NCBI GenBank assembly: GCA_963722255.1
Contig: CAVRJO010000002.1
Coordinates: 648,467-712,466 of the forward strand
Direction: 5' to 3'
Length of the DNA stretch: 64,000 nucleotides
Source: Candidatus Babeliales bacterium
GTDB lineage: Bacteria; Babelota; Babeliae; Babelales; JANWKD01
Notes under the pieces: generated by a model
What the model was told of the DNA's origin: nothing
Databases searched by the model: none
What the model saw: the letters and a program-made list of their open reading frames with translations, nothing else
Part shown: one piece after another, positions 2,160 to 59,001 of the stretch
Position numbering within the stretch: the stretch's first letter is position 1
Layout: each line of letters opens with the position of its first letter
Translations under genes and position numbers: made by a program

Positions 2160-2770
2160 TTAATCTTTTTTACGCCCATCATATTCAGGCTTTACAACTC
2201 TTCCTGTTTCTTTTTGAACTAACTGATAATCATTGTGTCCTTGCCACAGAAGAACATACTCTTTCTTTCTTGGTAAGTAAGCAAAATTAAACCATAAATA
2301 AAAGCCATCTTCTTTTACTTTATCAATTGCAATTGTATCGCCACGACTACCAACTTTAAGAAATGGTGAATCTTCACGTCTAAGCCATAGCGTTTTTGCA
2401 CAAATTTCCTCTCCTATACAATAAACGTTTTCATAATCTAACGAAGTACATCGATTATTCGATCAGAAAAAGAGTTCTTGTAATTATCATTCTTTTTTTC
2501 CAAAGGAACTTTTATTGATTTATTTGTTTTGCACTTTTGCCATGCATAATATAATCCAGCACCTAAGCTTGTACCTAATGCTAACGCCGTACAAAGATTA
2601 CTTTTAAGGCTATAATTTTCGGCATAAATCTGATGTGCTAAATGCGCAAAGCCAGCAACTCCTGCCACGAAGCTTAATGCACCTACTTCCAAAGAATCTT
2701 TCATAGACATTGCATGAATATAAGGAGACGCTAAAAGCATCGTCAAAAATATGATTTTTATTTTTTTCAC
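2160..2770 (-). pseudogene. Degenerate paralog of 3603-4186 (secreted/membrane hypothetical); ORF 2438-2770 plus frameshifted 3' remnants
   Basis: N-terminus nearly identical to the 4186 gene (MKKIKIIFLTML.ASP.IHAMSMKDSL.VGALS); GTG start; downstream frames end ...LVQKETGRVVKPEYDGRKKD*, resembling the paralog's alternative tail. Confidence 0.6.
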
Positions 2771-2785
2771 AGAAATCCCTTGTAA

Positions 2786-3409
2786 TAAATTTCACCCGCA
2801 GCAAGCAGCGGGGTATTGAATTTTTTTAAGGATTTCTATCTACATGAAGAACATCTGACCCAGATCTCTTGGCGTACGAGTAGGGTCTTTTTTGTGCAAC
2901 ATCATGTAATCCCTTCCCTGGTTTTTTACGTATTCTGCCACTCGTTTTTCGCTTCCATGCTTACTTACCGTGTTTACGAAATATCCATCAGACCAAAATT
3001 CTCCACCCCATAGCTGCCTCTTTACTTCGGGAACTTGTTTGAAAATTTCCCGCGCCGTTATACTTTTTATTTTTCTAACGATATTCGTAGGACTATACGT
3101 CGGTACGGACTGCACAAGAAAATGAACGTGATCCCCATCTGTTCCTATTTCTAGAAACTCTATCTGATAACGTTTTTCTATCTCAAGACACACCGACCTC
3201 AATACTTTGTCTACTTCCTCTGTAAAAACCGCTCGCCTATATTTTGCTGGACAAACTATATGATACATCAGAACCGATACATTATGACTTTTGTGTATAA
3301 ACCTACTTAATTTACTCATTCTCCCAATTTATCAGGACTTTTTATTTATTCCATTTTTTTTATCTGACTACGCGGCAAGCCGCGGGGAATTGTACCCGTA
3401 GAGATTAAA
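2786..3409 (-). mobile_element. IS200/IS605-family element (tnpA only), ends approximate
   Basis: Subterminal hairpins CCCGCAGCAAGCAGCGGGG (~2795) and CGCGGCAAGCCGCG (~3371) flank a Y1 transposase. Confidence 0.85.
2840..3319 (-). CDS. tnpA: IS200-type Y1 (HUH) transposase
   Basis: YHIVCPAKYRR, DHVHFLV (HUH), FWSDGYFVNTV, YVKNQ. Confidence 0.95.
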   Translation of the reverse strand: MSKLSRFIHKSHNVSVLMYHIVCPAKYRRAVFTEEVDKVLRSVCLEIEKRYQIEFLEIGTDGDHVHFLVQSVPTYSPTNIVRKIKSITAREIFKQVPEVKRQLWGGEFWSDGYFVNTVSKHGSEKRVAEYVKNQGRDYMMLHKKDPTRTPRDLGQMFFM

Positions 3410-3475
3410 AAACACACTTTACTAAATAACTATAGTCATCGTAAGAAACTATTCGAAGGATTTCTTATTTTATTA

Positions 3476-3552
3476 CTGGATCCCCCAGCCGTCGCACAAG
3501 GCTATGGCGGCCAGTGCACGGAGCTACACTTCATTCCGCTCCTCTGGATGAC
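3476..3552. repeat. GC-rich REP/RPE-like palindromic element
   Basis: CTGGATCCCC...GGATGAC frame enclosing two imperfect hairpins in an AT-rich spacer. Confidence 0.5.
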
Positions 3553-3655
3553 ATCAAGCGGTTCACTCAATTATTTTTTCTTGTAGAAATCTAATTCCTT
3601 CTTTATAATTCAACTTTCTCTCTTATTACCTTACCGGTACTTTTCTCAATAAGCT

Positions 3656-4186
3656 CTAAAATATCTTTTTTTCATTTAACCAAAAATACGTACCTTTTTT
3701 AAGGTCTGTAATATCATAGTTAACTTGATGTGTAGCATACTTTACATATAAAAATGTGCTCTCATCCTTCATACTGAGATTAAAATATGAACTATCTTTT
3801 GCATAAGCAAGTATTTTATATCCTGCATGAGATCGACTACAACCATGCTTTATCGATGCAGTATCCCTTGTTTCATTACACAAATCATCGATTATAAATT
3901 TTTTTTGCTTAACGACTGGTTTATTAGGTTTGACAGCATTGCAAGATAAATTTCGCCAAGCAAGATACAGCCCAGTTGTTAAGCTTGTACCTAGCAGCAA
4001 AGAAGTAACTACATTATTTTTCAAACTATAATCGTGAGCATTTATTTGGTGAACCAACTGTACAACTCCAGCGACTCCTGTCACTAAGCTTAATGCGCCT
4101 ACTGCCAATGAGTCTTTCATAGACATTGCATGAATAGAAGGAGATGCTACAAGCATCGTCAAAAATATGATTTTTATTTTTTTCAT
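3656..4186 (-). CDS. Secreted/membrane hypothetical protein (may extend to 3603 if the A7 run is A8)
   Basis: Signal peptide plus two hydrophobic helices; paralog at 2770. Confidence 0.7.
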   Translation of the reverse strand: MKKIKIIFLTMLVASPSIHAMSMKDSLAVGALSLVTGVAGVVQLVHQINAHDYSLKNNVVTSLLLGTSLTTGLYLAWRNLSCNAVKPNKPVVKQKKFIIDDLCNETRDTASIKHGCSRSHAGYKILAYAKDSSYFNLSMKDESTFLYVKYATHQVNYDITDLKKGTYFWLNEKKIF

Positions 4187-56860: not shown

Positions 56861-57277
56861 CAAAAAATCTAAAAAATTAGACTTTTAATTTTTATTATGC
56901 CCATGAAATGGTGATGTCCAAATAAATCGAAGCATTATGATTGAATCTTTTTATCAATTTTAAATCTCTATAGTGATCTAACAAGAGCTATGCACGATTA
57001 AAAATATCTTTACTTTGTATAAAATCACGCTTTTATGATAATTCAAGCCCGTATTCATAAAATTCTTTTCAAATCCTCTTTTCTCCAAACCTACATACTG
57101 AAGTTTTGGTACGTTCTTATGACTTATGCTTCTGTCAATTCTTCTTGAATAGATAAATGTAAATAATTATTAATGATATATGTAAACCAATTTTATATTT
57201 TTTAAATTATTGACATACAAACAGCAAATAAAATTAATATTTCTATAGTCGAATCAAACCCATGAAAGGAATTTTAT

Positions 57278-57670
57278 ATGAATAGACAATCTTCTGCTCA
57301 AATAACTCATAACACATGGTTTATGTTAAAAATGACTTATGGCTTAGTCGCAATTATTGCAGGGGCTGATAAATTTTTTAATCTTATCGTTCATTGGGAA
57401 AAATATGTAAGTCCAATGGTTGCTGCTTATTTACCAATAAATATGCAATACTTTATGTATACCATTGGTATCGTTGAAATTGCTGTAGGGCTTTTAATTC
57501 TTTCTCAATATACACGACTTGGTGCTTATCTTATTGCAGCATGGCTTGGCATCATTGTTCTGAATCTTCTTTCAATGGGTACTTATTATGATATTGCGGT
57601 TCGCGATATTGTCATGATGATTGGAGCTTTAGCTTTGGCGCAATTAACGCTCATTCAAGAAAAAAAATAA
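57278..57670 (+). CDS. DoxX-like membrane protein
   Basis: AGADKFFN...WEKY, GIVEI, YDIAVRD; four TM helices. Confidence 0.8.
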   Translation: MNRQSSAQITHNTWFMLKMTYGLVAIIAGADKFFNLIVHWEKYVSPMVAAYLPINMQYFMYTIGIVEIAVGLLILSQYTRLGAYLIAAWLGIIVLNLLSMGTYYDIAVRDIVMMIGALALAQLTLIQEKK

Positions 57671-57684
57671 ACAGCATTATTCAC

Positions 57685-57702
57685 GGAGGGCATAAAGCCC
57701 TT
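57685..57702 (+). terminator. Putative terminator hairpin
   Basis: GGAGGGC-ATAAA-GCCCTT just after the DoxX-like gene. Confidence 0.4.
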
Positions 57703-57837
57703 CATGTATTCTATTTTTAACTACAATCAATCTTTACTTCAAAGTTCATGGTAGCTATATTCTTTATTGTTGCTATACTCAAAAATGTTTTTTATTTTGC
57801 ATAATTCTACTCACAATACATTAAACAGAAGCACTTT

Positions 57838-59001
57838 ATGAAATATAATTTCTTTTCAAAAGCAACAATTATTGCCTCTTTTTTCTTTAGTAGCATACTT
57901 CAATTAAATAATAATTTTTCAATGGAATTGGAAGACATTGATGATGACAATCCTATTAAGAAAGAATTTTTACAAAAAGAAAAGGTTCATTTATTAACTT
58001 ATAATCAAAAAAATTATAGATCTACCAAACAAGCAAAAAACAAAGATCTTATAACAACGGATGATGAATCAACGGTATCTTCATTTGACTATCCACCTGA
58101 AATAGTAGAAAAAATAGTATTAGAGCTTGTAATCGATAAGGACAAAGAAACGGTTCCTACTCTTTGTTATATTTTAATAATGAATCCTCCCTTATCAGAA
58201 AAAATATACACTCAAGTAAGAGATAAAATTTCTGTGTATCATGCTTTATATGTCATTAAAAAAATGGAACAATGCAAAACTTCTACTCAACGAATTGCGC
58301 TAAGAGAAATTGCTTGCTCTGCAAATCATGGTTTCACCTATTGGGATGATCTTCCTAACTATTCATTCTGGGGCATGGGACTTGATTTAAAAAGAAATAT
58401 AAGAAAAGAAGTTAAAGGCTACATTGAAAATAGTAAGCAAAAAGCTGATGATTTAGATAAAAAATTACCAGACTTTTTTGATGAATTAGCAGATTCGTAT
58501 GAATCTATTCAGGAACAGATAGTTGACGATGAGCCAATTGCAGAATTTGAAGAAATAGATGCATCTAATAAAGAACGCCATCAACTAATCAAAAAATATT
58601 TTATTACTCGATCTTTATTTCTCAATGATGCTCATTGTTTGGAAGGAAAATTCAGAGAAAAAATTAACAAAGCATTCAAAGCTTTTACGCTTCTGCGTTA
58701 TTGCGCACCGCTTCATTGTTGTACAAGCGGAGTATCCTTATGTGCAATAGGTAGCATATTACAAAATTGCCCAATTATATTTGCTGGTTTTGGTGGACTA
58801 GCATTAGGGGTTCTACTATGCAGTTGTTGTTGTTGTTGTGAAGATTGGTCTGATTGGGCAATTTGTGAAGAATATTGCTGTAACGCACCAAAGATTGATT
58901 ATTGGGAAAATTTCGCCGGTATACCTAATACACAAAAATATGTAACTCTTGCTCAAAAAGAATTTACCAATTTATCAATACAAAGAAAAAAAGATTCTTA
59001 A
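57838..59001 (+). CDS. Secreted protein with F-box-like motif, C-terminal TM hairpin and Cys string
   Basis: FDYPPEIVEKIVLEL; GGLALGVLLCSCCCCCED. Confidence 0.7.
   Translation: MKYNFFSKATIIASFFFSSILQLNNNFSMELEDIDDDNPIKKEFLQKEKVHLLTYNQKNYRSTKQAKNKDLITTDDESTVSSFDYPPEIVEKIVLELVIDKDKETVPTLCYILIMNPPLSEKIYTQVRDKISVYHALYVIKKMEQCKTSTQRIALREIACSANHGFTYWDDLPNYSFWGMGLDLKRNIRKEVKGYIENSKQKADDLDKKLPDFFDELADSYESIQEQIVDDEPIAEFEEIDASNKERHQLIKKYFITRSLFLNDAHCLEGKFREKINKAFKAFTLLRYCAPLHCCTSGVSLCAIGSILQNCPIIFAGFGGLALGVLLCSCCCCCEDWSDWAICEEYCCNAPKIDYWENFAGIPNTQKYVTLAQKEFTNLSIQRKKDS

Follow-up and report, generated by a model that had tools for sequence, protein, structure and literature searches.

A methionine-acid junction behind Sec-type signal peptides marks orphan and eukaryote-like proteins of Babeliales bacteria

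We analysed a stretch of 64,000 nucleotides from a Candidatus Babeliales bacterium (GenBank assembly GCA_963722255.1, contig CAVRJO010000002.1, positions 648,467 to 712,466; hereafter the window, G000:C2:648467-712466 in our numbering) together with the genome that contains it, G000 (1.618 Mb in two contigs, 34% G+C). Some 150–260 of its proteins, or 10–15% of the genes (about one in eight), carry a maintained junction motif: a Sec-type signal peptide ending in [L/I/V/S]-x-[A/S/G/C/T], then Met, followed by Glu or Asp or, more rarely, Asn or Gln. This motif is exact in position, specific to one class of proteins, under selection, and spread through the order though not universal. The marked class consists mostly of orphan open reading frames (ORFs) or of proteins with eukaryote-type domains such as ankyrin repeats (Ank), WD40, C2H2 zinc finger and BTB. 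We consider it likely that the mature N-terminus created at this junction is a functional, selected signal. About half of that confidence extends to the host side as its reader, and the statement as a whole, motif together with a reading in the host cytosol, is held tentatively, at slightly less than an even chance.

The original prediction, made from the letters of the window, was that effector-like proteins regain Met at the first position after signal peptide cleavage (+1), often with Glu, Asp or Asn at +2. To examine the whole proteome we used our own crude gene caller, which gives 1698 genes in G000, and our own heuristic for signal-peptide-like proteins (positive net charge in the n-region, 10 or more residues in a row without charge, and a hydrophobic core), which flags 596 proteins. 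Cleavage sites throughout are those of our own crude -3/-1 heuristic, scored blind to Met. Met occupies +1 in 133 of 493 proteins (27%) against a background of 1.9% (binomial p 2e-109), and its frequency is 6–10% per site (mean 7.4%) five to nine residues past the hydrophobic core, compared with 1.6% at 15–40 residues and 1.9% overall. Among the 208 flagged carriers, Met lies exactly at +1 of the Met-blind site in 139 and at +2 in two. When alternative starts are scanned the carriers rise to 260 of the 1698 genes. They tend to adjoin one another, with 69 adjacent pairs where 40 are expected.

Aligning 253 proteins on the Met gives A, S, G, T or C at -1 in 204 and L, S, I, V, A or T at -3 in 207, a bulky, F/Y-rich residue at -2, and Glu directly after the Met in 93; this -3/-1 profile with a bulky -2 is the classic signal peptidase pattern. 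The carriers have the positive n-region, the h-region of ∼8–20 residues and the small -1/-3 residues of Sec-type signals, the set having been selected by that same definition, and signal peptidase I is encoded, with two Peptidase_S26 genes in G000. No lipobox Cys was found at +1 of the aligned proteins, that position being Met, and the position enriched in Cys is -1 instead (20/253). Nor is the pattern of type IV prepilin-like (class III) signals present, as the hydrophobic stretch precedes the Met and polar, charged sequence follows it. The junctions likewise do not match RxLxE/Q/D, the Plasmodium export element (PEXEL), since L/S/I, F/Y and A/S/G occupy positions -3 to -1 and the Arg that the element demands is missing from its place. 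In disorder-type composition, the first 30 mature residues show no difference between carriers and non-carriers.

The residue after the Met is strongly biased. In 445 carriers pooled from six genomes it is E, D, N or Q in 69%, a small residue in 11% and a hydrophobic one in 8%, against a background of 20, 36 and 30%, respectively; in non-carriers the +2 residue is E/D/N/Q in 31%, small in 35% and hydrophobic in 24%. The predicted +2 preference is thus borne out, and it is restricted to the single position after the Met. By genome, the E/D/N/Q share is 51–75% over a background of 20–21%. The acidic residue is mostly Glu in the window's family, Asp in two relatives from other families (G020 and G022) and mixed in a third (G014); the E/D/N/Q class is kept across lineages despite this switch from E to D. 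Within G000 the second residue is Glu in 61 of 133 carriers (46%), as opposed to 6% in signal-less proteins, where Lys and Asn lead. Given the predicted cleavage before the Met, the mature N-termini of 69% of the carriers would belong to the NatB class (Met followed by Asp, Glu, Asn or Gln).

In the window itself, all 13 junctions of the original prediction were found in the sequence at the starts proposed, their Met codon coordinates were checked, and nine of the 13 are of the Met-Glu, Met-Asp or Met-Asn type, as had been counted. We add a fourteenth (SFT/MQAK). They are given below, with a slash before the Met, together with the signal peptidase of the window.

2438..2770 (-), 110-aa protein with a 20-aa signal peptide and a GTG start; IHA/MS, Met codon 2708-2710; no Pfam family
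3656..4186 (-), 176-aa paralogue of the 2438..2770 protein; IHA/MS, Met codon 4124-4126; no Pfam family
5377..6777 (-), 466-aa ankyrin protein; CKG/MT, Met codon 6715-6717; Ank_2, E 7.8e-10
8504..9184 (-), 226-aa class I methyltransferase with a signal peptide; MNS/MN, Met codon 9113-9115; Methyltransf_11
17761..19260 (+), 499-aa beta-propeller-like protein; TYA/ME, Met codon 17818-17820; weak Beta-prop_EML_2
19490..20890 (+), 466-aa paralogue of the 17761 protein; TYA/ME, Met codon 19547-19549
28142..28897 (-), 251-aa ankyrin protein; LCA/MH, Met codon 28832-28834; Ank_2
45235..46641 (+), 468-aa WD40 protein; LMS/ME, Met codon 45289-45291; WD40
48597..49010 (-), 137-aa protein; SFT/MQ, Met codon 48927-48929; no Pfam family
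50552..51187 (-), 211-aa protein; ALT/MN, Met codon 51116-51118; no Pfam family
51384..52271 (-), 295-aa protein; LLA/ME, Met codon 52206-52208; no Pfam family
53441..54307 (+), signal peptidase I (LepB), which would be the enzyme that cuts the junctions; Peptidase_S26, 115 bits
54351..55229 (-), 292-aa WD40 protein; SKS/MD, Met codon 55173-55175; WD40 families
55333..55599 (-), 88-aa Cys-rich protein; INT/MN(KE), Met codon 55537-55539; no Pfam family
57838..59001 (+), 387-aa protein; NFS/ME, Met codon 57922-57924; no Pfam family

The ALT/MN protein is read from the ATG at 51187, inside an ORF spanning 50552-51220. Pfam backs the two ankyrin carriers and the four WD40 or beta-propeller carriers named in the original prediction, with weak matches for those at 17761 and 19490; the other carriers of the window have no Pfam family except the one methyltransferase. 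In four of the ten flagged window genes (5377, 8504, 45235 and 48597) the heuristic site falls 3–7 residues upstream of the Met, and for the ankyrin protein at 5377..6777 the favoured cleavage is five residues upstream. A large protein database yields two relatives for the 17761 protein, the sole outside homologue being P0003, with the junction LYG/MEEM. As had been claimed, two beta-barrel-like proteins and six small paralogous proteins of the window are without the junction Met. The latter six are exported proteins of 110–158 aa ('ITNKG/VINNG...TV') at 24515-26212 and 37265-38152, with ordinary signal peptides and no Pfam family. IS200-type Y1 transposase genes are present at 2843-3319 and 20967-21422, the first of which separates the carrier paralogues at 2438-2770 and 3656-4186.

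The original prediction called for a repeat in related genomes. The MnmG protein of G000 has its closest matches in metagenome-assembled genomes labelled 'Candidatus Babeliales bacterium' (65% and 60% identity). Forty genomes were drawn from the phylum, all labelled as the same order, and samples of 400 kb each (200 kb for G016) from six of these relatives went through the same pipeline; five of the six show Met at +1, at 16–29%.

G001, same genus, +1 Met in 41/146
G003, same family, +1 Met in 41/143
G020, other family, +1 Met in 25/144
G022, other family, +1 Met in 24/121
G014, other family, +1 Met in 22/133
G016, other family, 0.8-Mb genome with 31% G+C, +1 Met in 0/63

No Met excess was seen in 77 loci (1.35 Mb) of diverse other bacteria (4/111), nor in their AT-rich subset (0/31). 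These numbers bear on one doubt about the motif, which is that the internal Mets are the true starts and the 'signal peptides' open AT-rich upstream DNA, or that the heuristic makes the pattern. At 34% G+C, longest-ORF calling does over-extend some genes, and several miscalls were seen. Yet the same pipeline finds no +1 Met in G016 or in the AT-rich controls, a Shine-Dalgarno (SD) motif precedes the upstream start, the N-termini have ordered n-, h- and c-regions that obey the -3/-1 rule, signal-peptide columns are conserved among homologues, and the public gene call for P0003, made independently, also begins with the signal peptide. An artefact of this kind is hardly credible.

The mark is also confined to particular proteins. 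Carriers and non-carriers of contig C2 were scanned against Pfam at thresholds of 1e-3 and 1e-5, respectively, the non-carrier set including some cytoplasmic false positives. Among the 82 carriers, 58 match no Pfam family, 16–20 are Ank, beta-propeller or zinc-finger proteins (9–10 Ank, 6–7 beta-propeller, 1–2 C2H2 zinc finger and one weak LRR), and two belong to other families: the methyltransferase, and a membrane protease of the HtpX type that the heuristic flagged wrongly. The 132 non-carriers comprise 82 without a family, seven with Ank, WD40 or zf-MYND, and 43 of other families, which include Omp85/POTRA (two), OmpH, Peptidase_S41, a class A penicillin-binding protein, M23, FKBP, SecF, S8, GH1 (two) and S9. 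By Fisher tests the two sets differ in eukaryote-like families (p 0.002, both sets at 1e-5) and in other families (p 1e-8), in agreement with the proposal that links the Met to effector-like proteins; envelope housekeeping proteins lack it. In the genome as a whole, the pipeline scores 22 of 36 Ank genes as carriers, a number that rises to ∼26 on reading with start miscalls corrected. Among the carriers are three tandem paralogues (CKG/ME, CKS/ME) at G000:C2:468595-471630 (L025:5638-8670), two of them with eukaryote-type C2H2 zinc fingers. Carriers of 739–800 aa at G000:C1:503535-508098 and C2:282651-285053 have mature parts that open with ME-x-K...INVGG..Y.LT and, as judged from these residues, look like the beginning of a BTB/potassium-channel tetramerisation domain; one of them gives a weak BTB match together with a beta-propeller.

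The carriers are largely unrelated to each other. The 208 fall into 171 BLAST clusters, 155 of them singletons, and no common signal-peptide module was found in them: mean identity is 2.16 of 16 positions against 2.17 in a column-shuffled null, with equal tails. This excludes a shared or swapped cassette and a hidden common N-terminal module. The N-terminal region of an Ank carrier, searched against a large protein database, gave generic Ank matches only. Carriers make up 13 of 211 reciprocal best hits to G001, 2 of 149 to G020 and 2 of 137 to G022; they turn over fast, even inside the genus. As the 400-kb samples hold too few carrier orthologs (13, 8, 2 and 2), the reciprocal-best-hit test of conservation was replaced by one on homologue pairs.

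Across 103 such pairs, none of the 26 columns is better conserved than that of the Met (0.53); the next column follows at 0.50, and the flanks lie at 0.26–0.46. Other Mets of the same proteins are conserved in 35 of 143 cases. Retention depends on context: the Met is conserved in 49 of 84 pairs with E, D, N or Q next and in 6 of 29 otherwise (p 5e-4), a split that serves as an internal control for alignment bias. We conclude that the Met is under selection. This is also the evidence by which to weigh an alternative raised in the original prediction, that signal peptides were gained upstream of the old start of cytosolic, captured or newborn genes, leaving a Met that has no function today. The mature part does start just where a signal-less protein would, the carriers are young and lineage-specific by their few reciprocal best hits, the search with one window family gave a single outside relative, the many eukaryote-type domains would arrive without a bacterial signal peptide, and 171 unrelated clusters fit many separate events. 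However, a functionless Met would not be expected to persist while the signal peptide around it diverges, or, in its E/D/N/Q context, to be retained two to three times as often as the other Mets of these proteins; nor would Glu or Asp be expected where cytosolic proteins have Lys or Asn, and the model gives no cause for a cleavage site exactly before the Met. A neutral relic is improbable as the whole story, although grafting of signal peptides upstream may be how the motif originated.

A further alternative from the same source is that the in-frame ATG is a second initiation site, giving a signal-less cytoplasmic isoform beside the exported one. Only in-frame ATGs are enriched at the junction (7.4% versus 1.6%), the other two frames being unchanged, and the U-rich coding region of the signal peptide could support SD-independent initiation. 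Moreover, a homologue of a G000 carrier in G003 (G003:C1:350954-352159, minus strand) has an in-frame signal-peptide-like stretch, ..NKKTIVLIIFSSISFLAA/MEEN, in the 150 bases upstream of its ORF, but the expected start reads ATT; the longest ORF from ATG, GTG or TTG therefore starts at the junction Met. Most other apparent signal-less homologues were start miscalls of our gene caller and were set aside. The initiation signals point the other way. AGGA precedes 39% and GGA 51% of the upstream starts, which are ATG in 178 of 208 carriers, as against 0.5% and 5% at the junction Met and 10% and 25% at random internal Mets; from the SD motif at the first start, the signal peptides of the carriers appear to be translated. 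Hexamers of the -10 type, which would point to a leaderless transcript, show no excess (10% versus 12%), Lys, the commonest second residue at real starts, is rare after the junction Met, and a use for cytoplasmic copies of ∼200 host-type proteins is hard to see. We regard a second start as very unlikely. A DNA-level motif or leaderless-transcript promoter was likewise rejected, out-of-frame ATGs not being enriched and -10-like hexamers not in excess. It is because the Met is selectively kept, lacks an SD motif, is enriched in frame alone and belongs to no shared module that we take the junction to be a maintained motif rather than an artefact, a mere relic or a start led by an SD sequence.

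How might such a junction work? We propose that Sec would export the carriers and signal peptidase I would trim them to a mature N-terminus of Met-Glu, Met-Asp, Met-Asn or Met-Gln, and that this new terminus would be read as a signal, most likely by the host cytosol. Methionine aminopeptidase cuts only before small residues, so termini of this type retain their Met; they are the NatB substrate class, and are neither of the Met-hydrophobic kind nor substrates of the Arg/N-degron pathway. With Met retained, no degron and a NatB-class terminus, a secreted protein would look and last like one made by the host.

The main alternative is a sorting step on the bacterial side, in which the Met-acid N-terminus is read in the periplasm after cleavage and routes proteins across the outer membrane, by a type II-like system or in vesicles, while unmarked proteins stay in the envelope. 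The motif does split two classes of Sec substrates, and a co-evolving receptor would explain the lineage-specific choice of E or D. Hardware is at hand, as G000 has two secretins and two T2SSE-type ATPases. Type II is the only secretion system reported in Babela (PMC4378268), and vesicles are described for Chromulinavorax (PMC6561590). There is also a reported precedent in Bacteroidetes, where lipoproteins reach the surface and vesicles by virtue of a negatively charged signal after the +1 Cys (PMC5080379, PMC10319031). On the other hand, secretins number two in each of five genomes tested, including G016, which has no motif, and their presence was set aside as a correlate that does not discriminate; exported hydrolases (GH1, two; S8; S9), which are classical type II substrates, are without the junction Met. 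No candidate receptor was found in our analysis. The genome has a second signal peptidase I copy (G000:C2:137890-138756, minus strand; 66% identical to the window LepB), and LepB is duplicated also in G001, G003, G004, G005, G026 and G028, though not in G014 or G016; as a dedicated peptidase it was rejected as a requirement, since G014 has one LepB and still has the motif.

What the trait follows is Ank content: Ank_2 matches number 83, 141, 56 and 9 in carrier genomes and one in G016. We favour the N-terminal machinery of the host over a bacterial sorting step as the reader, because the residue class is the Met-retaining, non-degron NatB class, the trait goes with eukaryote-like gene content and not with secretion hardware, and the hydrolases lack the Met. 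Reading in the periplasm we judge unlikely. The most far-reaching form of the host-side reading is itself rather unlikely, if slightly less so: that Babeliales tuned their Sec signals so that the NatB and N-degron machinery of the host treats every protein bound for the host cytosol as native, making the dipeptide the bacterial counterpart of PEXEL and RxLR and a list of the whole effector repertoire.

Several points weigh against a functional host-read terminus. About a quarter of the carriers may have arisen by chance: G016 and the controls show a baseline of 6–8% of signal-peptide-like proteins, against 24–33%. Seven Ank proteins and several with WD40 have no Met but an ordinary A-x-A site. 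Cleavage sites are those predicted by our heuristic, so that the N-termini and their acetylation are putative. Homologue pairs are not independent, and counted per query the Met is conserved in 25 of 43 cases against 5 of 15. The depletion of small and hydrophobic residues is not independent evidence, as it follows partly from the E/D enrichment. Met is not obviously needed for stability, since A, S, T and G at +1 also escape the Arg/N-degron pathway, and the strong lineage bias to E or D is not predicted by NatB, which accepts both. NatB normally acts on nascent chains, and its action on a delivered protein is assumed here; one study shows no more than that co-expressed NatB is active in E. 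coli (PMC6040700).

Of known systems the nearest analogue overall would be PEXEL (also HT) of Plasmodium, likewise an effector mark just past an endoplasmic reticulum (ER) or Sec-type signal and a sequence rule that predicts an effector repertoire. Processing of PEXEL also creates a new N-terminus, with E, Q or D as its second residue. This maturation is reported to expose an N-terminus needed for delivery into the host (10.1101/2023.07.12.548774), and the terminus to be N-acetylated (PMC10038149). The differences are that Plasmodium is a eukaryotic parasite in which the aspartic protease plasmepsin V cuts in the ER, some residues past the signal, whereas the Babeliales junction has no RxL, begins with Met and is expected to be cut by ordinary signal peptidase I. 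In E. coli lipoproteins, the +2 Asp rule provides another case in which the residue after the cleavage site sets the destination. The Bacteroidetes signals cited above are similar in that often acidic residues after cleavage decide between surface or vesicles and retention, but they follow a lipidated +1 Cys and signal peptidase II; the carriers, with Met at +1 and no lipobox Cys, are not lipoproteins. The SVM proteins of phytoplasmas are Sec-dependent effectors too, made by an intracellular bacterium that is wall-less or reduced; their mature parts vary behind a conserved signal-peptide module, whereas in Babeliales only the junction dipeptide is kept. NatB substrates proper are nascent chains made by the host, unlike delivered bacterial proteins.

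Signal-peptide-bearing Ank effectors of Dependentiae concern the same organisms and the same proteins as our carriers: 79 of 126 Ank proteins are reported to have a signal peptide in Babela (PMC4378268), and 44% of coding sequences and 78% of Ank proteins in Chromulinavorax (PMC6561590). The word 'methionine' does not occur in the main texts of these two papers (supplements aside), and neither the +1 Met-acid junction nor its restriction to one protein class is described there. Nor was a description of the motif found in the literature on Dependentiae, Babeliales, TM6 or NatB in combination with signal peptide, secretion or effectors, subscription journals lying outside this coverage. Within the literature searched, the Met-acid tag is previously undescribed.

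Other features of the window were noted in passing. There are DDE transposases at 23364-24113 and 55749-56840; an IS3-type element occupies 62738-63962. The rpoD gene for the primary sigma factor, at 40072-41882 (-), is split into three ORFs (regions 1.1/1.2; region 2 with the beginning of region 3; and what is left of region 3), reflecting either assembly frameshift errors or a broken essential gene. A LigD-like ATP-dependent DNA ligase at 52295-53308 (-) and a Ku protein elsewhere on the contig (L002:5273-6082, minus strand) suggest non-homologous end joining in a reduced genome. A Fic/DOC family protein at 61482-62621 (+) has Fic_N and a C-terminal winged helix, with no signal peptide.

Dependentiae, with the Babeliales, are widespread and barely cultivable parasites of protists, and the motif bears on how their signal-peptide-bearing eukaryote-like proteins are separated from envelope proteins and reach the host. 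It would offer a cheap predictor of the host-directed secretome for Babeliales genomes and metagenome-assembled genomes, picking out ∼150–260 candidates in G000 from some 500 other signal-peptide-like proteins. Replacement of the Met or the Glu by other residues would be a concrete handle on sorting or host stability, and the absence of the motif from the Ank-poor G016 is a natural contrast for finding its reader. If the host-side reading is true, this would be the first bacterium to shape the product of its signal peptidase to eukaryotic N-terminal rules, and a one-line sequence rule would list the effector repertoire of a phylum of protist parasites.

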